A DNA stretch of 64,000 bases from an uncultured Gammaproteobacteria bacterium (GCA_964344965.1 CAYFPJ010000001.1:22771-86770); one strand, 5' to 3'. Positions 4,721 to 56,374 are shown, counted from the stretch's first letter. A program made the numbers and translations. The notes: generated by a model not told the origin, from the sequence alone.

Positions 4721-5035
4721 ATGGGCTTTTTTGCATATCTTTTTGGGACAGGTGCTCCAAAGAATAAAATATCCAATGTCGAACATCCTCTTGGTAAAGA
4801 TGAGATTTTTCTTCTTGTCTCGACTGCCAAAATTAAGACTCTTGATCGCAAAGAAAGAGACCTAATTCGTGAATTAATTTTGAAGCGTCGTCTGGGAGAC
4901 GGGAAGATTTCTGCCAGGCAGATTGATGAAGTACTTGCTCAAGCAGAACATGAAAACTTGATTAGTAAGTATGATAGGCAAAATGTGGTGAGAGTAATTG
5001 GTGAACATTTCAATAAAAAATTTGGAAATGCCTGA
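4721..5035 (+). CDS. hypothetical protein (104 aa) inserted between secY and adk
   Basis: Complete ORF with no recognisable motif. It occupies a slot that is normally empty in spc operons. Confidence 0.45.
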   Translation: MGFFAYLFGTGAPKNKISNVEHPLGKDEIFLLVSTAKIKTLDRKERDLIRELILKRRLGDGKISARQIDEVLAQAEHENLISKYDRQNVVRVIGEHFNKKFGNA

Positions 5036-5045
5036 AATACTGAAA

Positions 5046-5106
5046 AAGCTTAAAAGGCTACTATTTTTCAAGCCTTTTAAGCTTTTCAAGCCTTTTAAGT
5101 TTTTTT
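5046..5106 (+). terminator. hairpin with alternative pairings plus T-run (attenuator/terminator-like) immediately before adk
   Basis: aagcttaaaaggct (5046-5059) is the exact reverse complement of agccttttaagctt (5071-5084). A third copy, caagccttttaag (5088-5100), could pair alternatively and is followed by a T-run. Confidence 0.35.
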
Positions 5107-5108
5107 GT

Positions 5109-5768
5109 ATGAAAAAAATAATTATATTAATGGGGGTCCCTGGTAGTGGTAAAGGAACTCAAGCCAAAAAATTAGTCGAACGACATGGCTATGGTCATAT
5201 CTCTACTGGAGATCTGCTTCGTGCTCTTGCAGTAGATGAAAATGCTGATCCAGAAGACAAGCAAATGCTAGTTGACATGAAGGCTGGTAAGCTTGTTGCC
5301 GACAAATTGATTTACAAACTTGCTTTTGCAGAAATAGAAAAATATCTGTCAAAAGACACTGGAGTGGTGTTGGATGGAGCGATTCGAAATGTTGAGCAGG
5401 CAAAAAAGTATCAAGAATTTTTTGTTGAAAATAACTTGGCAGAAGAGGTGGTAGTAGTTGAAGTTTCCCTCAGTGATGAGACTAGCTTTCTACGCCTATC
5501 AAGACGCAAAGTTTGTTCTGGTTGTGGGGATATCATCCCGTACTCCAAAGAAAATGAATCAAAAAAAGAATGTGAAAAGTGCGGTGGGGAGCTGGTAGTA
5601 AGAGAAGACGACAACGAAGAGGTGATCAGAAAAAGAATCGAGGAACAAGGTAATGAAAAGCTACAACCAATTTTGGATTTTTATCGTGATCTCGGAATAT
5701 TACAATCTGTAGATGGTGAGATGAGTATTAATGAGGTAGATGGGGAGATTATCAAAATACTAGAGTAG
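5109..5768 (+). CDS. adk: adenylate kinase with zinc-binding lid
   Basis: P-loop GVPGSGKGTQ and a CSGCGD...CEKCGGEL Cys4 lid. The start is chosen at MKKIIILMG; the track ORF extends upstream in-frame across the hairpin. Confidence 0.9.
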   Translation: MKKIIILMGVPGSGKGTQAKKLVERHGYGHISTGDLLRALAVDENADPEDKQMLVDMKAGKLVADKLIYKLAFAEIEKYLSKDTGVVLDGAIRNVEQAKKYQEFFVENNLAEEVVVVEVSLSDETSFLRLSRRKVCSGCGDIIPYSKENESKKECEKCGGELVVREDDNEEVIRKRIEEQGNEKLQPILDFYRDLGILQSVDGEMSINEVDGEIIKILE

Positions 5769-19629: not shown

Positions 19630-20418
19630 TTGAGGTATAATATGCTACATATGTCCCGTGTTATAGCTATTGTCAACCAAAAAGGCGGAGTGGGAAAGAC
19701 CACGACAGCCATGAATTTGGCCGCTCATTTGGCTGAGCTTGGTAAATTTGTCTTACTCATAGATATGGATCCACAAGGTAATGCCAGTAGTGGACTTGGA
19801 TTTTCCAAAGACGATACACCTCATGGTATATACGAAGTTCTCGCTAGGCAAAAAAGAATGCATGATGTTGTTTTCAATACTGGACATGAGGGTCTGAGAA
19901 TAATTCCGGCTACTACCAATTTGGCTGGAGCGAACATAGAGCTGGTAGACATGGAAGATAGAGAGAGGCAACTCTTCAATTTGGTTGAAGAGGCTAAGCA
20001 CGCTTATGATTATATTATTATAGATTGTCCACCTTCTCTTGGTCTCCTTACAATCAATAGCTTGGTGGCTGCAGACGAACTTCTTATTCCTGTACAAGCA
20101 GAGTACTATGCTCTTGAAGGTCTTGGTCAACTTTTACAGACTATCAATTTAATTCAAGAACACATCAAGCCAGATCTGGGAATTCTTGGAGCAGTGATTA
20201 CTATGTTTGATAAGCGTACCAAGCTTTCTGGAGATGTCATGGATCAGCTATATCAGTATTTTCCAGATACCATATTCCGTTCTGTCATACCACGGACAGT
20301 CCGATTGGCAGAAGCTCCAAGTTTTGGTCAAACAATATTACAATACGATCCAAGAGGAAAAGGTTCGCGAGCCTATGAGAGGTTGGCTGTAGAAATTCTT
20401 GACAAACATAACAACTAA
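19630..20418 (+). CDS. parA: chromosome partitioning ATPase ParA/Soj
   Basis: Deviant Walker A IAIVNQKGGVGKTTTAMNLA and MDPQGN. The true start may be 19645 or 19651. Confidence 0.88.
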   Translation: MRYNMLHMSRVIAIVNQKGGVGKTTTAMNLAAHLAELGKFVLLIDMDPQGNASSGLGFSKDDTPHGIYEVLARQKRMHDVVFNTGHEGLRIIPATTNLAGANIELVDMEDRERQLFNLVEEAKHAYDYIIIDCPPSLGLLTINSLVAADELLIPVQAEYYALEGLGQLLQTINLIQEHIKPDLGILGAVITMFDKRTKLSGDVMDQLYQYFPDTIFRSVIPRTVRLAEAPSFGQTILQYDPRGKGSRAYERLAVEILDKHNN

Positions 20419-20457
20419 CAATTAACAACTAACAATCTTTGTCTGACTTGTTAATTG

Positions 20458-20604
20458 TTAAATCTTTAAGCGGTTTTATTCCTCGATGCTTGCATCGAAA
20501 AAGTGAAAACTAACATTGGTTGAAATAAGATTTTCTGCCAATACCCCGCAGCTTGCTGCGGGGATGGCCCGATGAAGTCTTACTTAAACCAAATTTACTT
20601 TTAT
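20458..20604. repeat. 147-bp element, copy A (exact duplicate of 27204-27350), ending 22 nt upstream of the parB ATG
   Basis: Identical sequence, read directly. Contains hairpins cgatg-cttg-catcg and ccccgcag-cttg-ctgcgggg (CUUG tetraloops). Confidence 0.85.
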
Positions 20605-20625
20605 TGTTAATTGTCAATTGTCATT

Positions 20626-21489
20626 ATGGCTTTAGGAAAAGGATTAAATTCTCTTATTCCACAATCTAAGTCTCGCAAAAGAATACGTAAGGAGACTAGC
20701 TCAGATAAAAATAATCATGAGCGTATTTGGTATATCCCTTTGTCAGAAATAACACCAAATAGTGAACAGCCTCGAAAGAATTTTTCTCACAAAGAGATCG
20801 AAGACTTGGTACAATCAATTAAAAAACACGGCATTTTACAACCCATTACCGTTACAGAAAAAGAAGACGGGGGGTATGAGCTTATTGCGGGGGAAAGAAG
20901 ATTGAGATCTTCTGAGATTGCGGGCTTGGCCACGATTCCAGCCATTGTGCGCAGTGCCACAAGTCAGGAAAAATTGGAGTTGGCTCTCATTGAAAATATT
21001 CAACGTCAAAATCTTGATCCAATCGAAGAGGCTTTTGCTTATCAGAGATTGATACAAGAGTTTGGGCTTACTCAGCAGGAAGTTTCTGCTCAGGTGGGCA
21101 AAAGTCGTCCTGTAATTGCCAATACTATTAGGTTGTTGGACTTGCCAGACAAGATTCAAAAAGCTTTGGTGGATAGGCAGATTAGTGTTGGGAAAGCAAG
21201 AGCATTGCTTAGTCTCAAAAGTGACAAAGAACAAATGAAAGTATTCATAGAAATGATAGGTCAAAAGGCTACTGTCCGTGATGTCGAAAAAGCTGTGGCT
21301 GCCAAGGGGCAGAGTTCACGCAAAGGTTCTGTGAGACGTGATCCTAATATCAGAGCTACAGAACAATTGATAGAAGAAAGAGTTGGTTCTAAAGTGCATA
21401 TTACCCAAAAGGGGGAGCGGGGTACTATAGTGATTGAGTATAACTCCAAAGGAGAGCTGAAGAGGATTGTGGAGGAGATAATCATTTGA
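20626..21489 (+). CDS. parB: chromosome partitioning protein ParB (Spo0J)
   Basis: ParB box GILQPITV...LIAGERRLRSSEIAG, HTH region. Start chosen at MALGKGLNSLIP. Confidence 0.88.
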   Translation: MALGKGLNSLIPQSKSRKRIRKETSSDKNNHERIWYIPLSEITPNSEQPRKNFSHKEIEDLVQSIKKHGILQPITVTEKEDGGYELIAGERRLRSSEIAGLATIPAIVRSATSQEKLELALIENIQRQNLDPIEEAFAYQRLIQEFGLTQQEVSAQVGKSRPVIANTIRLLDLPDKIQKALVDRQISVGKARALLSLKSDKEQMKVFIEMIGQKATVRDVEKAVAAKGQSSRKGSVRRDPNIRATEQLIEERVGSKVHITQKGERGTIVIEYNSKGELKRIVEEIII

Positions 21490-21530
21490 GGGCCCATGAT
21501 CTATGAACCAAGAACCATGAACTCCAATAA

Positions 21531-23009
21531 TCACTTGTTCGGTAACATGGATTTAATCCAGCCAGTTATTTTATTTTTTTGTGTAGTCTTGATGTGGGTT
21601 TTTGCAGTTGTTGTTTTTACAAAGGATAACCAGTCTGGATTTGGGCCTTTTCTATTTTTGTCTAGTATTATTTCTACTACATCACCATTCTTCAATTCAG
21701 TATCAAGACTTACCATCATGTCATTCACTAGAGCTCCGTTACACTTGTTGCCGACTTCTGTATGGATATGATATGCAAAGTCTACAGGACTAGCACCTTC
21801 TGGCAGGTCTATTACATCTCCTTTGGGGGTGAAGACAAAAATTCTGGTCTGCAAAAAATCTACTTTCATTTGTTCTAGGTCAGAAAGTTTGTTGAGCATG
21901 TCTTTTTGGATACTCACTAATTCTTTGATCCAGGCTATTTCTTTTTTTTGGGCTTTAGAACCATTTTCATCATAGTGCCAGTGTGCAGCTACACCATACT
22001 CTGCCTCTTCGTGCATTTCTGGTGTTCTGATTTGGAATTCAATAATATCTCCAGAGTCTCCAAAAACTGTGGTGTGGAGTGATTTGTAACCATTTGGTTT
22101 TGGTTGGGAGATATAATCCTTTATTCTTCCTTTCAGTGGTTTGTAAGTGTGGTGTAGTATTCCAAGAGTGGCGTAGCAGTCAGCTATGTTGGATACAATT
22201 ACTCTAATGGCAACTAGATCATATATTTTGGCAACAGAATTTTCTTTTCTAAGTAATTTTTTGTACAAACTGTACAGTCTTTTACTTCTGCCATAAATAG
22301 AGATTGTCTTTACGTTCGCCTCTTTGAATGCTTTTTCTGTTTTTTTGATTATATCTTTCAGGTATTGTTTTTTCCCCTTTATTTTTTCATCTCTGATTTT
22401 CTTCACCCTCTCATACTCCTTTGGATATACATACTTGAAGGACAAGTCTTCCAATTCTCCTTTCATTTCAGCCATCCCGAGACGGTTGGCAATCGAAGCA
22501 TATATCTCTAGACTTTCTAAGGCTATACGATATTTTTTTTGTGGAGGAAGGGCATCTAGAGTACTCAAATTATGAATTCTGTCTGCGAATTTTATAATCA
22601 TCACTCTTACATCTTCTGCCATGGCAATAAACATCTTTCTTAGATTTTCAATATATCTCTCTACCCCCCGATATTTTAGTTTCCCTAATTTTGTAATACC
22701 TCTTACTAATCCTTCTATCTCGCTGCCAAAATTTTTCCTTATATCTTCCAGTGTCACTTCGGTATCTTCTGGAACATCATGCAATAAGGTGGCTACGATA
22801 ATAGTCGGGTCAATTTTCATGTCTGCTAAAATGTGGGCTGCTGCCAAGGGGTGAGTGATGTATGGCTCTCCGGTACGCCTCTTTTGTCCTTCGTGAGCAG
22901 AGGCGGCAAAATCATAAGCAAGCTGGATCATGTCTAGATCAGCCTTGTCATGGTATTCTTTTATTTTCTCAAGCAATTTCTCAATTGTTTGTTTTTTGTG
23001 CTTGCTCAT
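21531..23009 (-). CDS. short RelA/SpoT homologue (HD hydrolase + synthetase + TGS, no C-terminal regulatory domains)
   Basis: HD motif (HDVPEDT), synthetase region (RSKRLYSLYKK...YKSLHTTV), TGS (IFVFTPKGDVIDLPEGASPVDFAYHIHTEVG). Only 492 aa. Confidence 0.85.
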   Translation of the reverse strand: MSKHKKQTIEKLLEKIKEYHDKADLDMIQLAYDFAASAHEGQKRRTGEPYITHPLAAAHILADMKIDPTIIVATLLHDVPEDTEVTLEDIRKNFGSEIEGLVRGITKLGKLKYRGVERYIENLRKMFIAMAEDVRVMIIKFADRIHNLSTLDALPPQKKYRIALESLEIYASIANRLGMAEMKGELEDLSFKYVYPKEYERVKKIRDEKIKGKKQYLKDIIKKTEKAFKEANVKTISIYGRSKRLYSLYKKLLRKENSVAKIYDLVAIRVIVSNIADCYATLGILHHTYKPLKGRIKDYISQPKPNGYKSLHTTVFGDSGDIIEFQIRTPEMHEEAEYGVAAHWHYDENGSKAQKKEIAWIKELVSIQKDMLNKLSDLEQMKVDFLQTRIFVFTPKGDVIDLPEGASPVDFAYHIHTEVGNKCNGALVNDMMVSLDTELKNGDVVEIILDKNRKGPNPDWLSFVKTTTAKTHIKTTQKNKITGWIKSMLPNK

Positions 23010-23080
23010 AATATTTCTATATTATATGAGGTTTGGTGTTTTGGCAAGGTGTAGACCTTATTTTTTTGCTAATTTAAGAT

Positions 23081-23120
23081 AAAAAAATAAAAACTCTTTA
23101 TGTATTTATAAAGAGTTTTG
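23081..23120 (-). terminator. rho-independent terminator-like hairpin (aaaactcttta/taaagagtttt) followed by a U-run on the minus strand, downstream of the topA operon
   Basis: 11-bp perfect stem plus T-run, seen directly. Confidence 0.4.
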
Positions 23121-23166
23121 TGCTTTATTCTTGAAGGTGGAAGTTTTGCTCTATCTATTTTGATGA

Positions 23167-24360
23167 TTATTGTAATTCTATTATGTCCTCTTCGATGTCA
23201 TATGCTATAGAAATATCCTCGTCACCGATATAAACTTCTTGATTTTTTGAATTTACATCAGAATTTCCCTCTTCTTTACTATGTATTTTTTTGGGAAGTA
23301 CTCTGCTTCTTTTTTTGATATATCCAGAGGGGGGATTATTTCGAGCCCCTAATGCCTCTATAAACATTTCCATGACAATTTTTGGACTAAAATATTCCCT
23401 CCCCCTTCCTATTTTACCGACCTTTACCCATTTATCTTTGTTATTTTTTCCACCTCCGTATGCCCATTTGACCACATCCAGAGCATCTAGCACTTCTTTC
23501 GCCTTAAGTGGACGATCTATTATTAATGGTGGATTTGGACCTGGGTAGTCAATTTCTTCTGTAGATTTTATTTTCATAATACTCTCTTTGTCCAACCAAC
23601 CTGAGGGTGGCTGATCTAACATTTTAATATGTTTGCCTCCTTCATATTTTTGTACCAAATATGTCAAAAGCTCGTCAACTTTTTCGTCTGGTATGGCAAA
23701 TAAATCATCATCATGCCCTGGGAACATTTTCGATCTTTCTTTAAAAGAGTTTTTTTCTATGATATTTATAAATTCTTGTTCTTTAAGAGAGGATGATATT
23801 AATTTTTGTAATCTTGTTTCCCAATTATCCTTACTGCCACCATTTGCTACTCTTTCCATAAACATTGACAAAAATGTTGAAGATGGTATCCACCCCTCTT
23901 CAATCGTGTGAGGAGCACTTTCTATTTTTTTTGCCAGACTTTCTGAGATATATACTTCTTTTGTGGTTGCGCTACTTCTGCCGTCCCCCTTTTTTCTTTC
24001 TGTACGAAATATCTTTATATCTGTAAGTAGGTCTTCTGCCCCTGCAATTTCTAGGAATCTTGTTTCTGTGATATGCATTTTTTTACAAAAGAAAACCATC
24101 GGTTCCCAACCTTCTGGAGCTGCCTCATTGATATCATTTATGTATGTTCGTAGCTCTTCAGCCTGAGCAGGCTTGATCAAAGCAGACATTTTCATTTGAC
24201 TTGTGATGTCAGCTGTCATTAACTTATATGCGTACAATAAGGTGGTAAAATCTACACCAAGCTCTCCTTGTAATTTTGTAACGAGGACACCTTTCTCTCT
24301 TTCTCTTTTTTGTGGTCTTTCTGCTACTGTTGGTGGTTTGTATATTCTTGCCCTTACCAT
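23167..24360 (-). CDS. hypothetical protein (397 aa) translationally coupled downstream of topA
   Basis: 9-nt gap after the topA stop. No recognisable domain. Confidence 0.55.
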   Translation of the reverse strand: MVRARIYKPPTVAERPQKREREKGVLVTKLQGELGVDFTTLLYAYKLMTADITSQMKMSALIKPAQAEELRTYINDINEAAPEGWEPMVFFCKKMHITETRFLEIAGAEDLLTDIKIFRTERKKGDGRSSATTKEVYISESLAKKIESAPHTIEEGWIPSSTFLSMFMERVANGGSKDNWETRLQKLISSSLKEQEFINIIEKNSFKERSKMFPGHDDDLFAIPDEKVDELLTYLVQKYEGGKHIKMLDQPPSGWLDKESIMKIKSTEEIDYPGPNPPLIIDRPLKAKEVLDALDVVKWAYGGGKNNKDKWVKVGKIGRGREYFSPKIVMEMFIEALGARNNPPSGYIKKRSRVLPKKIHSKEEGNSDVNSKNQEVYIGDEDISIAYDIEEDIIELQ

Positions 24361-24369
24361 ATGAGTGTA

Positions 24370-26643
24370 TTATTTTTTTGTTTTTTTACGACCTCTCTTC
24401 TTTGTGGGATTTTCTTTTAGCTCTATCTCACATTCTTCCAGTGTCAGATCTTTAGGCTCTTTGTCCTTGGGAATTTTGGCATTAGTATTCGTACTTGGGT
24501 CGGTGATGTATGGTCCATACCGGCCATTGAGGACTTGGATTTTGCTTCCTTCAAATGTCTTAATTATTTTTTCAGCCTCAGCTTTTTTCTTGGCAGCAAT
24601 TACTTCGAGAGCAGTTTCAATTTTTATGGTATAAGGATCTTCGTCTTTAATCGAATAAAATTTTCCTTCCACTTTCACATATGGACCGAATCTGCCAATA
24701 TTGGCGATTACTTCATTATCATTTTCATCTTTTCCTACCACCCTTGGGAGCTTGAAAAGTTCTAGAGCTTCTTCTAGAGTGACTGTGTCCACTCTTTGAC
24801 CCTTAGCAAGTTTGGCAAAGGCTGGTTTTTCTTCATCATCTTTGGTTCCTTTTTGGACAAATGCTCCGTATCGTCCGACTCGGGCGTAGATTGGTTTACC
24901 GCTCTTTGGATCAGCACCCAATTCTCGCATGGCCACTGTTTCTTCTTTGGTAAGGTTTTCAGTTTTGTCCACCAGATTCTCATGAAAGGGGTGGTAAAAT
25001 GTGGAGATGATTGGCTTCCAATCTTTTTCACCATCAGCAATAGCATCTAGATTATCTTCCATTTGAGCTGTAAATTTGTAATCTACAATGTTTGAAAAAT
25101 GTTCTACCAAGAGGTCATTGACCACAAAAGCAATATCGAGTGGTTCTAATTTTTTATTATCATCTCTCTCTACATAGCCGCGATTTTCAATAGTGCCAAT
25201 AGTCGGAGCATAGGTTGAAGGTCTTCCGATGCCATACTCTTCCATTGCTTTGACAAGTGTAGCGTCAGAATATCTGGCTGGTGGCTGGGTGAAGTGTTGC
25301 TCTGGCTTTAGTTCTTTGCAATCTACTGCATCTCCTTCAGATAGCTCTGGGAGCATTTCTTCTTTGGTTTGTTCTGGATATAGTTTGAGCCAACCTGGGA
25401 AAATGATAGTCTGACCACTAGTGCGGAACATATAATTTTTGGCAGTAGTGTCAATTGAAGTCCGATTCAATTTTGCTTCTGCCATCTGGGTGGCAAGAGC
25501 TCTTTTCCAAATCAGTGTATACACTTTTAGCTGCTTGTCATCGAGATGGGCTGACAGGAATTCTGGAGTCCAGGCAGGATTGGTCGGTCGGATTGCTTCG
25601 TGAGCTTCTTGTGCTCCTTTGGATTTTGTTTTGTATTTGCGAGGAGTTTTCAAAACATATTTATCACCATACTCTTTGCCAATAAAATTTTTAGCTTCAT
25701 CCAAAAATTTGGCTGATAAATTGACCGAGTCGGTACGCATGTAGGTGATGAGACCAGTCTGACCTTCTGCTCCAACATTTACACCTTCATACAGTTGCTG
25801 GGCAAGACGCATGGTCTGGCGAGCTGAATAACCACATTTATGACTAGCTTGTTGTTGCAAGGTTGAGGTTGTAAATGGAGGTGGGGGAGTGCGTTTTGTT
25901 TCTTTTTTGGCTACCTTGGCAATTTCATATTTGGCACCATCTAGATCAGCCAAGATTTCATCTACTCTTTTTTTATTACCAATTTCCAACTTGTCTAGTT
26001 TCTTATCATCGATAGAATGTAGCTTACCGACAAAGTCGTGTTTTTCTTTATTAAATATTCCTTGAACAGTCCAGTATTCTTCTTCTTTGAAAGCTTGTCT
26101 TTCACGCTCACGCTCCACAATCAATCGTACTGCAACAGACTGGACGCGACCAGCAGACAGTCCACGAGCCACCTTTTTCCATAAGAATGGAGAAAGTTCA
26201 TAACCAACCAGTCTGTCGAGCACTCGACGAGCTTGCTGAGCATCTACTAGTTTTTGGTTGATTGTACGAGGATTTTTCAAGGCTTCTTCGATGGCATGCT
26301 TGGTGATTTCATGAAAGGCTATCCTTTTTGCCTTACTTGGGTCTACATCAAGGATATGAGCTAAGTGCCAGGAGATAGCTTCTCCTTCGCGGTCTTCATC
26401 AGTAGCAAAGATGATTTCATCAGCTTTTTTGGCAAAGTCTTTGAGCTTTTTTACTTGTTTGGTTTTGTCCTTAGAAATAGCATAAGTAGGCTCAAAAGTA
26501 CCGCCTTCGATATCTACCCCCATCTTACTTTTCGGTAGATCTCGGAGATGCCCAAAAGAAGACTCTACTTTGTAGTCTTTGCCAAGGAATTTGGAGATTG
26601 TCTTGGCCTTGGTAGGGGACTCGACGATTACTAGTTTGGTCAT
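24370..26643 (-). CDS. topA: DNA topoisomerase I
   Basis: Toprim N-terminus (LVIVESPTKAKTI), active-site region (TYMRTDS), C-terminal Lys-rich tail. 757 aa. Confidence 0.92.
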   Translation of the reverse strand: MTKLVIVESPTKAKTISKFLGKDYKVESSFGHLRDLPKSKMGVDIEGGTFEPTYAISKDKTKQVKKLKDFAKKADEIIFATDEDREGEAISWHLAHILDVDPSKAKRIAFHEITKHAIEEALKNPRTINQKLVDAQQARRVLDRLVGYELSPFLWKKVARGLSAGRVQSVAVRLIVERERERQAFKEEEYWTVQGIFNKEKHDFVGKLHSIDDKKLDKLEIGNKKRVDEILADLDGAKYEIAKVAKKETKRTPPPPFTTSTLQQQASHKCGYSARQTMRLAQQLYEGVNVGAEGQTGLITYMRTDSVNLSAKFLDEAKNFIGKEYGDKYVLKTPRKYKTKSKGAQEAHEAIRPTNPAWTPEFLSAHLDDKQLKVYTLIWKRALATQMAEAKLNRTSIDTTAKNYMFRTSGQTIIFPGWLKLYPEQTKEEMLPELSEGDAVDCKELKPEQHFTQPPARYSDATLVKAMEEYGIGRPSTYAPTIGTIENRGYVERDDNKKLEPLDIAFVVNDLLVEHFSNIVDYKFTAQMEDNLDAIADGEKDWKPIISTFYHPFHENLVDKTENLTKEETVAMRELGADPKSGKPIYARVGRYGAFVQKGTKDDEEKPAFAKLAKGQRVDTVTLEEALELFKLPRVVGKDENDNEVIANIGRFGPYVKVEGKFYSIKDEDPYTIKIETALEVIAAKKKAEAEKIIKTFEGSKIQVLNGRYGPYITDPSTNTNAKIPKDKEPKDLTLEECEIELKENPTKKRGRKKTKK

Positions 26644-26807
26644 AAGGTCAGCAGATTAGGCAGAATATGCAGATCAAGCAGATTATGCCAGTCAAGTTTA
26701 CCTGATTTTAGGTAATTTATGCTTAGATCTTTTTTAGACTTTTAACAGCATAGTCGATATTGCACTGCATGTCAAATGGTGGTATTCTGTATTATGTAAT
26801 TTTTTAA

Positions 26808-27089
26808 TTGTATTTTCATATGGACAATCTAGGCATTGAGCAATCGAGAGTGAACGAAGTTCGTTCAGAAGTATCTAGTTTCATAAAAGATGTATCTGGT
26901 TCTGAGAGTGATATTTCTTTAGACAGTGTTATAAATGAGTTACTGTCAGAACCACGTCAAATATCTGATTTAGAGAGTAGAATAAATGCAGATTTTGGCA
27001 TCTCCTTTACAAGAGAGGAGATTGATAGTATTTCTACAGGTACAGTTGCTCAATTGATGGAGCTTGTCTCCAAAAAAATTGGGTGGTAG
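26808..27089 (+). CDS. small acidic protein with acyl-carrier-protein-like (PP-binding) features
   Basis: DISLDSV then ...ADFGISFTREEIDSISTGTVAQLMELV resembles the ACP DSLD / EEEFGI / helix-4 layout. Weak. Confidence 0.35.
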   Translation: MYFHMDNLGIEQSRVNEVRSEVSSFIKDVSGSESDISLDSVINELLSEPRQISDLESRINADFGISFTREEIDSISTGTVAQLMELVSKKIGW

Positions 27090-27203
27090 TATATATCGCA
27101 CCATATTGAGAGAAAGTAAATTTTAGATATATTTATATATCTCTTACGGAATATAGGATTAACTAACTAAATATATATTTTACATTAACTTTACTAAATA
27201 ATT

Positions 27204-27350
27204 TAAATCTTTAAGCGGTTTTATTCCTCGATGCTTGCATCGAAAAAGTGAAAACTAACATTGGTTGAAATAAGATTTTCTGCCAATACCCCGCAGCTTG
27301 CTGCGGGGATGGCCCGATGAAGTCTTACTTAAACCAAATTTACTTTTATT
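27204..27350. repeat. 147-bp element, copy B, ending 4 nt upstream of the ATG at 27354
   Basis: Exact duplicate of 20458-20604. Confidence 0.85.
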
Positions 27351-27353
27351 TAT

Positions 27354-27713
27354 ATGAAAAGAATGGACGCAGGGAAACCAAGAAAAAACGTTGATGCTCA
27401 AGAGTTGTCACATGGACATGTAAAAAGTAAAATTTTGGGTTTGACAAAATTTATAACTTCCAGTAGGGAAGGTCATATATTTCCGCAAGTAGATCAATCG
27501 CAATTGGTGCTTAACACTTTAGAAGAAGGTCGCGTCTTGGAAGATGCTGATTTAAGCTCAGTTGATTTGATATCATTTGTAGGTTCTATTGAAGAGGAGT
27601 TTGGTATTAATTTTGTTGGTCAGGAAATACACGGCTTACAACAATCAACTATAGATAAGATTGCTGAAAAAGTAATGGAAAAAATTAAAAATAAACCTAC
27701 TATGGATAGCTAG
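27354..27713 (+). CDS. acyl-carrier-protein-like protein (PP-binding domain with N-terminal extension)
   Basis: DADLSSVDLISFVGSIEEEFGINF...STIDKIAEKV aligns well with ACP [24 protein letters not shown]...helix 4. Confidence 0.5.
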   Translation: MKRMDAGKPRKNVDAQELSHGHVKSKILGLTKFITSSREGHIFPQVDQSQLVLNTLEEGRVLEDADLSSVDLISFVGSIEEEFGINFVGQEIHGLQQSTIDKIAEKVMEKIKNKPTMDS

Positions 27714-27719
27714 TGCTAG

Positions 27720-31485: not shown

Positions 31486-31645
31486 GGATATTTAATCCCG
31501 ACCTCGTTCCTCGGTACGGGACGAGGGACTGGTTTAACCTGCCTGCCGGTCTTCGACTATGAAGCTCAGACTGAATAGCAGGCAGGCCCCCCGAGACTTG
31601 CTTCGGAAAAAAGGGTCCAGGGGCTTGTCTTAGGGTTCATACCTT
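31486..31645. repeat. about 150-bp structured repeat, copy 1; its internal GC palindrome is split by a 28-nt insert
   Basis: ttaatcccgacctcgttcctcggtacgggacgag...ggtttaacctgcctgccgg[tcttcgactatgaagctcagactgaata]gcaggcagg...gggtccag...catacc..ttgatt. Shared with 36248-36400. Confidence 0.75.
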
Positions 31646-31662
31646 TGATTGGATTTATAAAT

Positions 31663-36247: not shown

Positions 36248-36400
36248 GATTTTAATCCCGACCTCGTTCCTCGGTACGGGACGAGAGATCGGTTTAACCT
36301 GCCTGCCGGCAGGCAGGTTCCCCGGGGCTTGCCCCGGAAAAATGGGTCCAGTCCCGATAAAATCGGGACTGGGGCTCATACCATTGATTTAAACTTTTTG
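36248..36400. repeat. about 150-bp structured repeat, copy 2 (intact GC palindrome at 36298-36317), 38 nt downstream of the tRNA
   Basis: Aligns with 31486-31645. Contains hairpins ccgggg-cttg-ccccgg and agtcccgat-aaaa-tcgggact. Confidence 0.75.
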
Positions 36401-36437
36401 GTATACTAGGATTGAAATGTTCTAGTTTTATTTTTTT

Positions 36438-47450: not shown

Positions 47451-49766
47451 TTAATTTTTTGTTTTTTTGGAGAGGAGTGTTTGTCTTTCTCTTTCTTTTG
47501 ATTCTATTTCTTTGCTTACTTTTTTTGATGCACTCCTGTTATCTTGTTCATTTATAAATTCAAAAATAACCAGAAGTATGTTGACGCCAGGAATCATCTT
47601 TAGCAAAAATGTCACACAACTTCCACTTTTGTAGGGTTTACCTTGGGTCAGTTTCATCAGTGCTACTATGGGCATTCCAATCCCTGAAAGTGTAAGTAAA
47701 TGTACAAAACACCCGGTAAGCTCATCTTCATTATCTATTTGATTGTCTATTTTCTTTTTTTGTTTTTTTAGTTTGCTAATGTCCTTATCCAGGTCCTGTG
47801 CTTTTTTATTATTTTTATTTTTTTGCTCTCTTTTTTTGTTATCCAACTCATTTTTTCTGTCTTTCTCTGTTTCGGATCTTTCCTTATTTTTTTCTTTATC
47901 CTTATCTTTTCCTTTTCCTTCTCCTTCTCCTTCTTGTTTATCTTTTTTTTCTGAATCATCTCCCTCATTTTTACTCTCATCTTCAGCCTCTTCTTCCTTT
48001 TCTTCTTCCTTTTTTTCGTCTATGGCAGAATCTTTTTTTCCGTCCAGCGCGTCAGCTGCTTGCTGCCACTTGTCAGCATTCCAAAAACTTGGCATACCAC
48101 CGGGCATTTTTTGCTTACTGTCTTCTTCTGGATCACTGCCATCTTCTGTATCACCATCTTGTTTGTCATCATTTTTTTCTTTGTCATCTTTTACATACTC
48201 TTCACCACCTGGCGCACTCTTTGCAGATTCTTCGTCAGCTTTTTTCTCTTTTTCAGATGGTTCATCACTTTCATCATCTCCGTCATCGTCCTCTTCATCT
48301 TCTTCTGCGTCTTCTGGTGAATCAGTATCATCGTCTGCATTCTCACCATCTACTGGCTGATCTTCTCCCTCGTCGTCATCATCATCAAAAAAATCATCCA
48401 TGCCTGGCACACCTTGTGCCATTCCTGCCAGTCCGTGTCCACCATCTGGTGCATCTTCATCAGTTGTATCTTTTTCATCGTCAGCTTTATCTTCGTCATC
48501 ACCTGCATCTTTTTTTTCATCAGGCCTTTTTTCACCTTCATCGGGTGTTGGTTTTTCGTCTGATGGTAGCAGATCACCACTCGGCGTATCATCAAGGCTG
48601 TCAGCTGCTTGTTGCCACTGATCATCACCCCACATGCTTGCCGGTCCTTTTGGGTTACTTGGTTTTTTTGGTTCTTCGCTTTTTTCATCTCCGCTATCAT
48701 CACCATCATTTTTACCACCTGCATCTTTATCTTTGTCACCACCTTCTTCCTCTTTTGGTTTGTCTGTTTCTGTACCATCTTTTTTTTCGTCTTCTGGTTT
48801 TTTTTGATCTTCCTTTTGCGGTGTATTGTCAGACTTGTTATTGGATTTATCGGAACCTTCTTCTACTTTTTTACCGCCATTATCTGATGCCGGATCACCA
48901 CTCGGCGTATCATCAAGGCTGTCAGCTGCTTGTTGCCACTGATCATCACCCCACATGCTTGCCGGTCCTTTTGGTCTACCTGGTTTTTCTTGGTTTTCAT
49001 CTTTTTTATTTTTATTCTCATCCTCATTTTCACCATCTCCACCTTCTTTCGATTTCTCTGGCTCTGCTTCATCTTTTGGTTCTCCTGCTTTTGTGCCATC
49101 TTTGTCGCCATCTGACTTTTCTGGATTTCCTTTTTCTTTTGGTGCGTCATCAGATTTACCATCTGACTCATTGGATTTGTTGTCGGAACCTTCTTCATTT
49201 TTTTTGTTATCATCGTTTGTTGGCGCATCAAGACTATCTGCAGCTTGTTGCCACTTGTCTGCACCCCAAAAGCTTGGCAATCCGCCTGGCATGACTGTTC
49301 TTGGCTTGCTTGGTTCAGTCGAAGCTTGTCCAGATTCTTGCTTCGGTACCTCAGCTTTTTCAGAGGCGGGTTTAGTTTGTGCTTTTTCTGGTTTTTTGGG
49401 AGTTTGTTTTTTGGGAGTAGGCTGTCGTCCTCTTTCTTGGTTTTCCTTCCTTTTTGCTTTCTTTGCCTTATCCCTCTTTTTTTTTGCTCGTTTGTTTGCT
49501 GCCTTTCTTTTCTTTTTTCTTTCTTGCGCCCTCCTTTGTCCTGGAGTTAGTTGATTGCTATCTCTGGCAGAATTTTTCAGATCCTCTCTGTTTGATGATG
49601 CTCCCCGCGTTCTATTGGTAGCTGATCGCGAACTAGGCTCTCTTCTTTTTGCTTCTTTCTTATTGCCTTGACGACGTGGAGCATCCTGATCATCACCCAC
49701 AAGAGGGGCTGGCACCTTTCTGGCAGCATTTGATTTTCTGTTTTGCTGATCAGATTGATCTGCCAT
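47451..49766 (-). CDS. 771-aa intrinsically disordered poly-acidic/Lys-rich repeat protein with four (M/F)WG(D/A)D(Q/K)WQQAADSLD motifs and a C-terminal hydrophobic anchor
   Basis: Repeats PASMWGDDQWQQAADSLDDTPSGD (x2, encoded by an exact 83-bp direct repeat), PSFWGADKWQQAADSLDAPTNDD, PSFWNADKWQQAADALDGKKD. Basic N-terminus. Hydrophobic GMPIVALMKL...VNILLVIFEF near the C-terminus. Confidence 0.6.
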   Translation of the reverse strand: MADQSDQQNRKSNAARKVPAPLVGDDQDAPRRQGNKKEAKRREPSSRSATNRTRGASSNREDLKNSARDSNQLTPGQRRAQERKKKRKAANKRAKKKRDKAKKAKRKENQERGRQPTPKKQTPKKPEKAQTKPASEKAEVPKQESGQASTEPSKPRTVMPGGLPSFWGADKWQQAADSLDAPTNDDNKKNEEGSDNKSNESDGKSDDAPKEKGNPEKSDGDKDGTKAGEPKDEAEPEKSKEGGDGENEDENKNKKDENQEKPGRPKGPASMWGDDQWQQAADSLDDTPSGDPASDNGGKKVEEGSDKSNNKSDNTPQKEDQKKPEDEKKDGTETDKPKEEEGGDKDKDAGGKNDGDDSGDEKSEEPKKPSNPKGPASMWGDDQWQQAADSLDDTPSGDLLPSDEKPTPDEGEKRPDEKKDAGDDEDKADDEKDTTDEDAPDGGHGLAGMAQGVPGMDDFFDDDDDEGEDQPVDGENADDDTDSPEDAEEDEEDDDGDDESDEPSEKEKKADEESAKSAPGGEEYVKDDKEKNDDKQDGDTEDGSDPEEDSKQKMPGGMPSFWNADKWQQAADALDGKKDSAIDEKKEEEKEEEAEDESKNEGDDSEKKDKQEGEGEGKGKDKDKEKNKERSETEKDRKNELDNKKREQKNKNNKKAQDLDKDISKLKKQKKKIDNQIDNEDELTGCFVHLLTLSGIGMPIVALMKLTQGKPYKSGSCVTFLLKMIPGVNILLVIFEFINEQDNRSASKKVSKEIESKERERQTLLSKKTKN

Positions 49767-49773
49767 AAATTTT

Positions 49774-52326
49774 TTAGACCAATCTATACTCTTTGGCCAC
49801 TCTCTTTAGAGTATAGTCTTTTTTGGTTATTTTTTTTCTTAATATATTAGATACAGCCTCACTAATAATTTTTTCTACCACAGTTTCAAGTATTCTGGCT
49901 CCTGTGTCTTCATCGTACGATTCTTTGATGATACTCTTTATGGTAGGTTTGTCTGAGGAAATTGTGATATTGTCTTTAACCAACTTTTTATTTATTTGTT
50001 CTATCCTATTTTTTATTATCTCTTCTAGTGTTTCTTCTGATAGAGTAGAGAAGAAGCAAGTTTGATCCAGTCTTCCGAGCAGCTCTGAACCAAATTGTTC
50101 TTTTAGTTTGGAGTTGATGGCGGAGTTTATTTCTTTTTTTATTTCAGCAGTCTCTTTATCTCTGGAATGACCAAATCCAATACCGTGAGATTTGTATAGC
50201 TCTGATCCAACATTGGAAGTGAGAATTATAGTGGCATGCGAAAAGTTTATTTTTTTACCAGCACTATCTGTCAATTCCCCTTCATCCAAAATTTGCAATA
50301 ACAAACGAACGACATCTGGATGAGCCTTGTCCACTTCATCGAATAGTACGACCGAGTATGGTCTTTTTTTGATCTCATCTGCAAACCTATTTCTTTCTTT
50401 GTGCCCTATATATCCAGCAGGGGAGCCAAGGAGCTTCGATATTCCATGCTGCTCAGCAAATTCGCTCATATCTAGTTTGACAAGAGCTTTCTCATCAAAA
50501 TACATTTCTTTGGCTAAGACTTTGGCTAGTTTGGTTTTACCCACTCCACTTGGGCCCACGAAGAGTAGAGAGGCAAAAGGTTTTTTTTCTGATTTGAATC
50601 CAAGGTGGGATTGCTTGAGAGAGGAGACTATCTGATCTATTGTTTTGTCTTGGCCAAAAATTTGTTTTTTTATTTTCTTACCCAAGACGTCGAGCTGCTT
50701 CCAGGTACTACTAGTCAATATTTTAGGGTCGACGTTCAATCTTTTTCCTACTATCTTGGCAATATGGGTCACTGTAATTGGTTTTTTGGGGATTGATTTG
50801 CTGTTGGCTATCTTTTTCTCTAGATTAGAAATTTGTTTTTGCAGTTTCTCAGCCTGTTTTTTCAATTCCATTGCTGCTGAAAATTCTTCGGCATGAATAG
50901 CCTGAGCCTTACATTCCAATACATTTTCCAATTCTTTTTTTATTTTTTCTAATTTTTTTTGGGTAGGATGCATTTTTTGCTTGTTCTTCACAGAAGCTGC
51001 TGCCTCGTCAATTAGGTCAATTGCCTTGTCTGGCAAGAAATTGTCATGCACATACTTGATGCTGAGATCCACTGCTGATTCGACTACCTTTGATGATATC
51101 TGGACGTGATGGAATTTTTCATACTGCTTTTTCACACCCTCTAGGATTTCTAAGACTTCTTCCCGTGTTGGCTCATCGATGTCAATGGACTGAAATCTTC
51201 TTTCAAGTGCTGGGTCAGATGAGATATGTTTTTTATACTCATCAATTGTGGTTGCACCGATACAGCGTAGCTGACCTCTTGCCAAAGCTGGCTTGAGGAT
51301 ATTTGCCGCATCCATGGTGCCTTGATTTGATCCTGCTCCAATGATGTTGTGGATTTCATCAATAAAAAGAATAATGTTCGGATTCATTTGTACTTCTTCA
51401 ATGATTTGTTTCAATCTACTTTCAAATTCACCGCGGTAGATTGTCCCCGCAATCAGAAGGGTCATATCAAGAGAGAGAATTTTTTTATTTCTCAGCACAT
51501 CTGGGACTTGACCTTTGAATATTTTTTTTGCCAAGCCTTCTACAATTGCTGTCTTTCCTACACCCGGCTCACCAACTAGGACAGGATTGTTTTTGTTTCT
51601 TCTGCCTAGTATATTTATCAGTCTTTCCATTTCGTCTTTTCTGCCTATCACTGGGTCCAGGTCGGCCTGAATATTCTTACTTGTCAGATCTGTAGCAAAG
51701 GTTTCAAGAGCAGTCATTTGCTTATGGTGATTTTTGTTATTTCTCTCTCTCTTTTTAATTTGTAATTTTGGAGAAGAGATGGCAGGCGGACCTATATCTT
51801 GCTCCATGTGATCCATGGCTTCTGCCACATCATCCACAGTCGGGAAACGGCTTGTATTTTGGACAATAGCCAGGATCTGCTCCTCTATTTCTTCGGTTGC
51901 AGTTTTTGTTTGATTTATTACTTTTTGAACATGTAAGTCTTTTGTTTTGATGAGTCCGTATAGAAGATGCTCTGTACCGACGTAGCCGTTGCCATACTCA
52001 TAAGCCAAGAGCATGGCTTTTTCGAGAGCATTTTTTGAGGCAGAATTTAGATTTGGTAAGGTGGCGGTCAGTGTGTGTCCTGAGCCCTCTTCGTTTTGGT
52101 GAGGTTTTATGATGATAGAAGAAAGCAGAGTGGAAATTTTTGTTGGGGTTATTTTATTGTTTTGTAAAATTTGGTTGGCTATCGAACCTTTTTCTTCACT
52201 CAGTGCTAGGAGAATATGGAGAGGAGTGACATCTGGATGTTTATTTTCAGATGCAGTAGATATACTTCTTGCAATGACATTTTTTAGGTGAGTCGATAAT
52301 TTGTCTAGCAGATGATCGGTATTCAT
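49774..52326 (-). CDS. clpC: Clp-family AAA+ chaperone ATPase (ClpC/ClpB type, two AAA modules, Clp_N repeats, coiled-coil M-domain)
   Basis: Walker A GEPGVGKTAIVEGLA and GPSGVGKTKLAKVLA, sensor/arginine fingers, a GIGFG loop at the ClpP-docking position. 850 aa. Confidence 0.85.
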   Translation of the reverse strand: MNTDHLLDKLSTHLKNVIARSISTASENKHPDVTPLHILLALSEEKGSIANQILQNNKITPTKISTLLSSIIIKPHQNEEGSGHTLTATLPNLNSASKNALEKAMLLAYEYGNGYVGTEHLLYGLIKTKDLHVQKVINQTKTATEEIEEQILAIVQNTSRFPTVDDVAEAMDHMEQDIGPPAISSPKLQIKKRERNNKNHHKQMTALETFATDLTSKNIQADLDPVIGRKDEMERLINILGRRNKNNPVLVGEPGVGKTAIVEGLAKKIFKGQVPDVLRNKKILSLDMTLLIAGTIYRGEFESRLKQIIEEVQMNPNIILFIDEIHNIIGAGSNQGTMDAANILKPALARGQLRCIGATTIDEYKKHISSDPALERRFQSIDIDEPTREEVLEILEGVKKQYEKFHHVQISSKVVESAVDLSIKYVHDNFLPDKAIDLIDEAAASVKNKQKMHPTQKKLEKIKKELENVLECKAQAIHAEEFSAAMELKKQAEKLQKQISNLEKKIANSKSIPKKPITVTHIAKIVGKRLNVDPKILTSSTWKQLDVLGKKIKKQIFGQDKTIDQIVSSLKQSHLGFKSEKKPFASLLFVGPSGVGKTKLAKVLAKEMYFDEKALVKLDMSEFAEQHGISKLLGSPAGYIGHKERNRFADEIKKRPYSVVLFDEVDKAHPDVVRLLLQILDEGELTDSAGKKINFSHATIILTSNVGSELYKSHGIGFGHSRDKETAEIKKEINSAINSKLKEQFGSELLGRLDQTCFFSTLSEETLEEIIKNRIEQINKKLVKDNITISSDKPTIKSIIKESYDEDTGARILETVVEKIISEAVSNILRKKITKKDYTLKRVAKEYRLV

Positions 52327-52461: not shown

Positions 52462-52602
52462 AACATACGAATTGCGAATTGTACGCCGTGCCTGCCGGCA
52501 GGCAGGAATGTTCGAATACTATTTCCAGAGTTTTATTTACAAAATGATAGATAGTAGTGTAACCGGTATTCGTACATTAGAAATATTCGTAATTCGTATG
52601 TT
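52462..52602. mobile_element. MITE-like element: terminal inverted repeats AACATACGAATTGCGAAT / ATTCGTAATTCGTATGTT enclosing a GC palindrome (52490-52506)
   Basis: TIRs read directly. The same 18-mer TIR is found at 56255-56374. Confidence 0.55.
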
Positions 52603-56254: not shown

Positions 56255-56374
56255 AACATACGAATTACGAATATTTCGAATATACGAATACCTGTAACAT
56301 TGCTCTTTGTAATATTGTAAATAAAACTATGGAAACAATATTCGAACATTCGTACAATTCGTAATTCGTATGTT
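56255..56374. mobile_element. MITE-like element with TIRs AACATACGAATTACGAAT / ATTCGTAATTCGTATGTT (second copy of the family)
   Basis: 18-mer right TIR identical to that at 52585-52602. About 120 bp. Confidence 0.55.

Follow-up and report, generated by a model that had tools for sequence, protein, structure and literature searches.

Insertion sequences of the IS200/IS605 family have no inverted repeats and produce no target duplication; their insertion point lies 3' of a specific tetra- or pentanucleotide, and each of their ends bears a hairpin (PMC7290912, PMC3201880). These hairpins are bound by the transposase TnpA on the single-stranded top strand, and the cleavage sites are specified by the four bases that precede each hairpin foot on its 5' side (PMC7290912, PMC3201880). 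In IS608, cleavage on the left takes place outside the element, 19 nt 5' of its left hairpin, and cleavage on the right 10 nt 3' of the right hairpin (PMC3201880). There are also derivatives that consist of the ends only, referred to as palindrome-associated transposable elements (PATEs), for which mobilisation in trans is assumed (PMC10055086); they are known from Haloquadratum walsbyi (PMC3119063), Halanaerobium (PMC7290912), and Geobacillus stearothermophilus (the ISGst PATEs; PMC10055086). The subject of this work is a 148-nt repeat that is found in two copies in a 64,000-nt stretch of DNA (positions 22771-86770 of contig CAYFPJ010000001.1, assembly GCA_964344965.1), here called the window. 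This repeat is very probably a non-autonomous, gene-less element of the IS200/IS605 family, that is, a PATE or miniature inverted-repeat transposable element (MITE), which has recently spread in a genome of Candidatus Magasanikbacteria. It keeps only the two subterminal hairpins and short flanks of the insertion sequence.

The two copies, at positions 20458-20605 and 27203-27350, are 100% identical over 148 nt, lie on the same (plus) strand, and are offset by 6745 nt; an exact identity of this length makes a chance origin impossible. The original prediction, made from the sequence of the window alone, recognised this duplication but gave it as 147 bp, with coordinates off by one and with a quoted string that lacked the first TT. 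Neither blastn nor nhmmer detected any other full or partial copy in the 64 kb. The G+C fraction of the element is 0.38, versus 0.39 in its surroundings, and its fold is far more stable than those of shuffled sequences, with z scores of -5.4 and -6.0 for the RNA of either strand and -4.1 for the DNA. A match of the element to its own reverse complement, detected by nhmmer, corresponds to a long palindrome. Each copy contains two perfect CTTG-loop hairpins, both on the plus strand, just as predicted for the respective CUUG tetraloops: HP1 (TCGATGCTTGCATCGA, or TCGATG-CTTG-CATCGA when written as stem-loop-stem) at 20483-20498 and 27228-27243, and HP2 (CCCCGCAGCTTGCTGCGGGG, or CCCCGCAG-CTTG-CTGCGGGG) at 20544-20563 and 27289-27308. 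Hairpins with this loop and a stem of at least 5 bp number 6 in the window, all of them on the plus strand, versus 0.4 expected. The mini-ORF ATGGCCCGATGA, predicted as a further feature of the element, is indeed present at 20564-20575; it comprises three codons plus a stop, with no support as a gene.

Homologues of ParB place the host in Candidatus Magasanikbacteria (Patescibacteria/CPR, the candidate phyla radiation), and comparison with the corresponding loci of related genomes reveals the status of both copies. Copy 1 is inserted between parA (19630-20418) and parB (20626-21489), where the intergenic spacer, including the element, measures 207 nt. In the three relatives with 84%, 75%, and 74% ParB identity, the same spacer measures 49, 77, and 18 nt, respectively, and none of these orthologous regions upstream of parB contains the element. 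The spacer of the closest relative (...TTTGTTAATTATTAATTGTAAAATG...) aligns to the window sequence after removal of the element. Copy 2 lies between two orphan open reading frames (ORFs), 26808-27089 and 27354-27713. In the relatives, topA directly abuts the Mur-ligase gene, so the ∼1.1 kb at 26644-27719 that holds copy 2 is extra in the window genome. Approximately 95 kb of the relatives' loci contained no element, no CTTG- or CAAG-loop hairpin, and no match to the left-end profile described below. The element is an insertion and not a conserved leader of parB.

Further copies were found outside the window. The search for a third locus used as its protein query a spurious 48-aa ORF on the minus strand that reads through copy 2. 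This query matched the protein P0122, in which the C-terminal 31 residues are translated from element sequence; a member of the same protein cluster, P0123, is encoded on contigs of 607 to 609 nt (L139-L141) from three samples of the same project. In the orientation of the element, these contigs consist of element positions 26-148, then 361 nt, then element positions 1-125, and both partial copies are 100% identical to those in the window. The 361 nt are part of an EamA transporter gene in antisense orientation, in which the match to the Pfam EamA profile begins at residue 4 and at profile position 60 of 135. Given that the match starts in mid-profile between two copies, the element truncates the gene fragment on both sides. 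In the NCBI assembly, the EamA locus is found on a different, 75-kb contig. With these additional copies, antisense around a gene fragment, the population has at least four identical copies at three loci. The identity of all copies points to a recent burst.

Short-read assemblies break inside every one of these copies. Short-read contigs that encode an identical ParB start and stop inside the two window copies, those of 6846 nt corresponding to window positions 20484-27329, and their ends fall inside the repeat because an assembler with k = 127 cannot resolve it. Breaks inside the copies are also seen in independent short-read assemblies of three samples, with each of the differing flanks attached.

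The junctions were compared at all three loci. In copy 1, the left flank ...AATTG is followed by TTAAATC, and the right end TTTTATT is followed by GTTAA. In copy 2, the left flank is ...ATAAT, again followed by TTAAATC, and the right end TTTTATT continues into TATAT. At the EamA locus, one assembled left junction (right side not assembled) has the flank ...TTTTT before TTAAATC, and one assembled right junction (left side not assembled) has TTTTATT before ATATT. All three observed left junctions therefore read G, T, or T followed by TTAAATC, and the right junctions, each ending in ...CTTTTATT, run into unrelated sequence. Terminal inverted repeats are absent, given that TTAAATCTTT... at one end is not complementary to ...ACTTTTATT at the other, and no target-site duplication is seen at the three left and three right junctions. 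The presence of the 11-nt sequence TTGTTAATTGT at both 20448-20458 and 20604-20614 was considered as a possible target duplication and rejected, as the other copies do not have it; the empty site of the closest relative already contains a tandem TTAATT motif, so this short repeat is pre-existing. TTAA, too, is present at the relative's empty site. A classic MITE of the IS630/Tc1 or IS5 type does not fit, as the junctions show neither inverted repeats nor target duplications of fixed length.

The connection to IS200/IS605 comes from the relatives of the hairpins. The 20-mer CCCCGCAGCTTGCTGCGGGG, which constitutes HP2, was scanned in one genome per species and is present at at least 118 loci in many bacterial and archaeal phyla; the window's own genome is not among the matches listed. 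The 20-nt hairpin is found in Nitrospirota, Desulfobacterota, Omnitrophota, methanogens, Woesearchaeota, and Saccharibacteria and also on a viral contig. Clustering of the ORFs encoded within 1.5 kb of the hairpin at these loci revealed, among the matches listed, only one recurrent neighbour that was informative: a ∼150-aa protein whose gene lies directly between two hairpins at loci L036, L039, L072, and L108. All four proteins match the Pfam family Y1_Tnp ("Transposase IS200 like") with E values from 2e-33 to 2.5e-40. Clusters of aminotransferases and epimerases were dismissed as ordinary neighbours of the hairpin. At L072, the layout is GGTAATTCCCCGTAGCTTGCTACGGGG - tnpA - GATACCCCGCAGCTTGCTGCGGGGAGGTTCATT, which can be written out as GGTAATT-CCCCGTAGCTTGCTACGGGG - tnpA - GATA-CCCCGCAGCTTGCTGCGGGG-AGGTTCATT. 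Since tnpA is located here between the same two hairpins, the modules of the short elements represent IS200-type ends from which the gene has been deleted. The HP2 20-mer is the right-end hairpin of this tnpA element, and HP2 with its flanks shares a 28-nt identity with the hairpin upstream of the Y1_Tnp gene in L036. Searches of the literature with the hairpin sequence and with the project accession found no papers.

The sequences that surround the hairpin are conserved as well. Among the matches listed, 28 loci read GATA-hairpin-AG.TTCATT, and 20 have AATA before the hairpin. A subset of loci contains two hairpins in the arrangement TTAAATCTCT.CGGGT.TAATTCCCCG.AGCTTGCT.CG, a spacer of ∼30 nt, and (G/A)ATA-hairpin-tail, to which TTAAATCTTTAAGCGGTTTTATTCCTCGATGCTTGCATCGA ... 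AATA-hairpin is the counterpart in the window. Two such elements, L031 and L082, come from one Syntrophaceae metagenome-assembled genome (MAG) and are identical from TTAAATCT through 10 nt past the second hairpin. Another pair of copies, ending in ...TTTTATT, is formed by L142, from the viral contig, and L037, from an Acetobacteraceae MAG. All four of these elements likewise begin directly after TTAA. The L142 copy, at ∼5020-5170 of its IMG/VR contig, which is predicted to be viral, is a complete two-hairpin family element close to that of L037, a hint that the family may move between hosts by way of phages.

A profile of the left end, built for nhmmer from eight gene-less two-hairpin elements of unrelated phyla, with the window element and the hairpin used to find the loci both excluded, matched the window only at 20458-20498 and 27204-27243 (that is, from the first base of the repeat) and at HP2. 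HP1 aligns with the left-end hairpins of the family. The family hairpin shows compensatory changes at 6 of its 9 pairs and 13 double changes, a level that was reached in 0 of 500 shuffles. Besides a functional leader, the original prediction had considered a very recent mobile insertion, and this second reading is the one supported by relatives lacking the element, by the at least four identical copies, and by the IS200-type relatives.

With the family as a guide, the parts of an IS200-type end can be assigned in both copies, all on the plus strand except where stated. The TTAA at the left junction (20458-20461 and 27203-27206) is the probable target and left cleavage tetranucleotide and possibly lies outside the element proper. 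It is followed at 19 nt by the canonical foot of HP1 (position 20481), which is the geometry of IS608; in the family relatives, this distance is 17 to 18 nt. The left guide is putatively the TATT immediately 5' of the HP1 foot (20477-20480 and 27222-27225), judging by its position, in analogy with IS608; the family consensus at this place is AATT/TATT. The left-end hairpin HP1 itself extends over 20481-20498 and 27226-27243, with the perfect stem TCGATG/CATCGA at 20483-20498 and the canonical family foot CC at 20481. It is followed by an imperfect palindrome of ∼104 nt (20499-20602 and 27244-27347, not assigned to either strand), which is seen in both RNA and DNA folds, is specific to the copy family of the window, and has HP2 at its tip. 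The AATA 5' of HP2 (20540-20543 and 27285-27288) is the putative right guide, HP2 (20544-20563 and 27289-27308) is the right-end hairpin and matches the hairpins of the tnpA-bearing loci L036 and L072, and the terminal TATT (20602-20605 and 27347-27350), 42 nt past HP2, is the putative right cleavage site. The assignment of the right guide relies on covariation within the family: where GATA precedes HP2, the ends read ...TCATT in 26 cases and ...TTATT in none, and where AATA precedes it, ...TCATT is found in 3 cases and ...TTATT in 7, so that G goes with C and A with T. With its AATA guide and TATT end, the window element shows the same combination as the AATA/...TTATT members of the family.

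Several observations weigh against the assignment of the repeat to IS200/IS605 ends. The distance of 42 nt between HP2 and the terminal TATT compares with 9 to 10 nt in the family relatives and ∼10 nt in IS608, and the 42-nt tail has no relative detected elsewhere and pairs with the spacer to build the long palindrome. Comparison of this tail and of the spacer with L036 outside the hairpin revealed no significant homology (p = 0.76 and 0.81). The HP1 stem is weaker than in full-length elements, having lost the outer CCCC/GGGG pairs, and the match of the left-end profile (E ∼1e-3) is only moderately significant. The Fisher test of the covariation between guide and terminus gives p = 1.4e-5, a value uncorrected for shared ancestry among the copies. 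As for TTAA as the target, the alignment of the empty site of the closest relative is slightly more economical with TTAA inside the element. No Y1 transposase was found in the 64-kb window by tblastn or with a hidden Markov model of four TnpA sequences. Finally, JGI metagenomes, scanned with an element-specific 20-mer, contained no copy of the exact element, and blastn of the element against plasmid and phage collections gave no match. The JGI scan returned nine chance matches in high-GC coding DNA plus one type I-E-like CRISPR array. The repeat of this array (L131, JGI contig Ga0164293_10198292), GTTCTCCCCGCACACGCGGGGATGGCCCG, has GCGGGGATGGCCCG in common with the element, which is probably a coincidence between G+C-rich hairpins.

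If the repeat is an IS200/IS605 derivative, its spread can be expected to depend on a Y1 HUH transposase (TnpA) encoded elsewhere in the genome. Such an enzyme would bind both hairpins in the top strand (the plus strand of the window) when it is single-stranded and would locate the cleavage sites by base interactions that involve the tetranucleotide just 5' of either hairpin. The top strand would then be excised as a circle and joined 3' of a TTAA where DNA is single-stranded, such as at a replication fork. If parB or the neighbouring ORFs were affected, this would be a by-product of insertion; a secondary influence of the inserted hairpins on parB expression is conceivable, though no observation supports one. 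In a plot of cumulative GC skew, the plus strand is G-rich over most of the window and the curve is flat at ∼20-36 kb; a G-rich plus strand is the direction expected if the top strand were on the lagging-strand template, which, with only two oriented copies, is weak evidence. A more specific proposal, in which the two-hairpin elements make up an IS200-derived family spanning both domains, with the window element as its CPR member and with a rebuilt right end, where TATT sits 42 nt from the hairpin, at the foot of the 104-nt palindrome, is unlikely as it stands. Should the window copy be truly active, Y1 transposases would have to tolerate a right-end geometry that is not described for IS608. 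Alternatively, the palindrome may have been co-opted as structural punctuation inside the parAB operon.

An ends-only IS200/IS605 element has to be weighed against several other readings of the repeat. The original prediction put first a functional 5' leader or small RNA, that is, a promoter/untranslated-region cassette, a cis-regulatory RNA, or a small RNA gene, placed before parB and the 119-aa ORF. Each window copy does closely precede a start codon, on the same strand as the gene; the gaps are 20 nt (parB, ATG at 20626) and 3 nt (the 119-aa ORF, ATG at 27354), where the prediction had given 4 to 22 nt. The gap of 3 nt leaves the orphan 119-aa ORF no room for a Shine-Dalgarno sequence, which counts against a leader. 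The very stable fold would suit a structured RNA, and a weak local resemblance to the Rfam family RT-14 was noted (18.7 bits, versus a gathering score of 48.1; E = 2.4). This was the best subthreshold match in a permissive scan around copy 1 and was dismissed, there being no reverse transcriptase context; at the gathering score, an Rfam scan of the whole window detected only two tRNAs, and scans for promoters and terminators in and beside the element revealed no consensus site. The three relatives have nothing of the kind upstream of parB, two more identical copies flank the EamA fragment in antisense orientation, and the relatives of the element are found in unrelated contexts in many phyla, some of them with a transposase gene. 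A functional leader is therefore very unlikely, and this part of the prediction is not upheld.

The closest rival is a domesticated repeat of the kind known as repetitive extragenic palindromic (REP) sequences or REP doublets (REPINs), kept by a single-copy REP-associated tyrosine transposase (RAYT) and not by a mobile IS200 TnpA, which would imply similar biochemistry and another relationship with the host. REPs and RAYTs share an evolutionary origin with IS200/IS605 ends and TnpA. In favour of this reading, the repeat lies between genes and occurs in several copies with no transposase nearby, and it is palindromic, its long palindrome being superficially similar to a REPIN hairpin. However, its left and right modules are distinct, are in direct orientation, and match the ends of tnpA-bearing elements, as opposed to identical REPs in inverted orientation, and both arms of its palindrome are free of REP-like hairpins. 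With 100% identity among all copies, two of which disrupt a gene, the picture is that of a recent selfish burst and not of a long-resident family; the relatives of the window genome lack the element. A REP/RAYT origin is considered quite unlikely. As to an artefact of assembly or scaffolding, or a duplication by recombination and not transposition, short-read assemblers cannot resolve the repeat, and the long contig must have been joined across it. Nevertheless, the same junctions were recovered independently from several samples and by several assemblers (the ENA k127 contigs and Logan), and the gene order over both copies, from parA to parB and from topA to the Mur-ligase gene, is that of the relatives. 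Three differing left flanks and three differing right flanks, with no homology beyond the 148 nt, exclude a segmental duplication, and this explanation as a whole is hardly credible. The idea of a CRISPR-like mini-array was also dropped: the two hairpin units differ from each other, the 20 scanned proteins include no cas domains, and the full-length relatives carry tnpA.

Several additional features of the window and of the hairpin family deserve mention. In the interval between the two copies, the minus strand carries relA/spoT, a 397-aa ORF with no Pfam match, and topA. Copy 2 is flanked by a 93-aa and a 119-aa ORF, with the Mur-ligase gene next. The 119-aa ORF was taken in the original prediction for an ACP-like (acyl carrier protein-like) gene, which is not confirmed: it matches the PP-binding domain at E = 0.005 only, short of the Pfam cut-off, and is an orphan whose sole database relative is itself. 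Its resemblance to the 93-aa ORF is confined to 33 residues. A Pfam scan of 20 window proteins identified 17 as housekeeping and 3 with no match; no transposase or cas domains were seen. The 397-aa ORF (23167-24360, minus strand), located between relA and topA, is found only in the window genome and is absent from the relatives; both this ORF and the segment 26644-27719 with the two orphan ORFs resemble lineage-specific insertions. In the wider family, the 20-mer CCCCGCAGCTTGCTGCGGGG also occurs in a second context, in MAGs of Desulfobacterota/Syntrophales, where the arrangement is AGCGAGCGCATT-hairpin-TTAGCGAGCGAAT ... GTCGAAGATT-hairpin-AGCTTCAA, with hairpins ∼40 nt apart and direct-repeat flanks (L010, L021, L026, L028, L043, L046, L066, L068, L070, L080, L089, and others).

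The window contains other repeats as well. A second structured family is represented at 31491-31650 and 36251-36410, both on the plus strand, with the first 59 nt 95% identical and the remainder diverged. It starts with TTTAATCC, ends with GGG(T/C)TCATACC, and forms several hairpins, including the CTTG-loop hairpin CCGGGGCTTGCCCCGG at 36322-36337. The copy at 31491-31650 fills the DprA-Pth spacer, which measures 215 nt, versus 3 to 9 nt in the relatives, so this copy is also an insertion. The second family may represent the same type of element at a greater age, but blastn detected no sequence similarity between it and the 148-nt repeat. Intergenic sites at ∼5868, 8088, 30185, 36296, and 52489, as well as a site at ∼9108 in L128 and L129 (a related genome), share the palindrome AACCTGCCTGCCGGCAGGCAGG, which looks terminator-like or REP-like. 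An inverted repeat of 97 nt (52506-52602 and 56255-56351), 86% complementary and rich in TTCGTA/TACGAA, brackets ∼3.6 kb, and a shorter internal inverted repeat is found at 56255-56374. Tandem repeats of ∼320 nt with 61 to 96% identity occupy 48041-49302, within a 784-aa minus-strand ORF (47454-49805), which suggests a repetitive protein domain.

Genome annotations should list the repeat as the insertion of a mobile element, as opposed to a regulatory leader or small RNA. The element also explains the fragmentation of short-read Magasanikbacteria assemblies at the positions of its copies. It points to recent transposition of the single-strand type in a small CPR genome, in which parA has been split from parB and two insertions have occurred around a transporter gene fragment. 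The family, with a hairpin that is near-invariant across bacterial and archaeal phyla, could be used in studies of horizontal spread and of the IS200-type code that links guides to cleavage sites. Nothing here is unexpected for the IS200/IS605 family, and the interest of the case is modest; the points for specialists are the odd right-end geometry, the interruption of the parAB operon in a CPR bacterium with a reduced genome, and the hairpin that hardly varies across phyla.

Among the described systems, REPs, bacterial interspersed mosaic elements (BIMEs), and REPINs resemble the window element in being short intergenic palindromes that have IS200/IS605 ends as their kin and Y1 HUH enzymes as the proteins that recognise them. 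They consist of a single REP or an inverted pair, whereas the window element has two ends in direct orientation; no RAYT was seen. IS608 from Helicobacter pylori (PMC3201880) shares with the window element top-strand hairpins at both ends and a left tetranucleotide 19 nt 5' of the hairpin foot. Its four-base guide matches the cleavage tetranucleotide (PMC3201880), and the covariation in the family of the window element fits that model. The tetranucleotides, however, are TTAA/TATT in the window element and TTAC/TCAA in IS608, and the hairpin sequences differ, too, being perfect in the former and imperfect in the latter. In addition, the window element has neither tnpA nor tnpB, and its right spacing is 42 nt, compared with 10 nt in IS608.

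The IS200-group elements that consist of tnpA only and measure ∼0.6 to 0.7 kb (L036, L039, L072, and L108) have the same hairpin consensus, CCCCGNAGCTTGCTNCGGGG, at both ends. Their flanks read ...TAATT-hairpin on the left in L072 and GATA-hairpin-...TTCATT on the right in L072 and L039. Unlike these, the window element carries no transposase gene, and apart from the hairpins and left-end module, it has no significant similarity to them. From the known PATEs, it differs in its CPR host, in its right site, located 42 nt out at the foot of the 104-nt palindrome, and in showing no sign of a TnpB guide (omega) RNA; its length is 148 nt, versus ∼271 nt for the PATE-like element of Halanaerobium (PMC7290912). 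In other respects the resemblance to PATEs is close, as both are short, gene-less, multicopy units with only the left and right subterminal hairpins and with no inverted repeats or target duplication, and for both, mobilisation in trans by TnpA is presumed.

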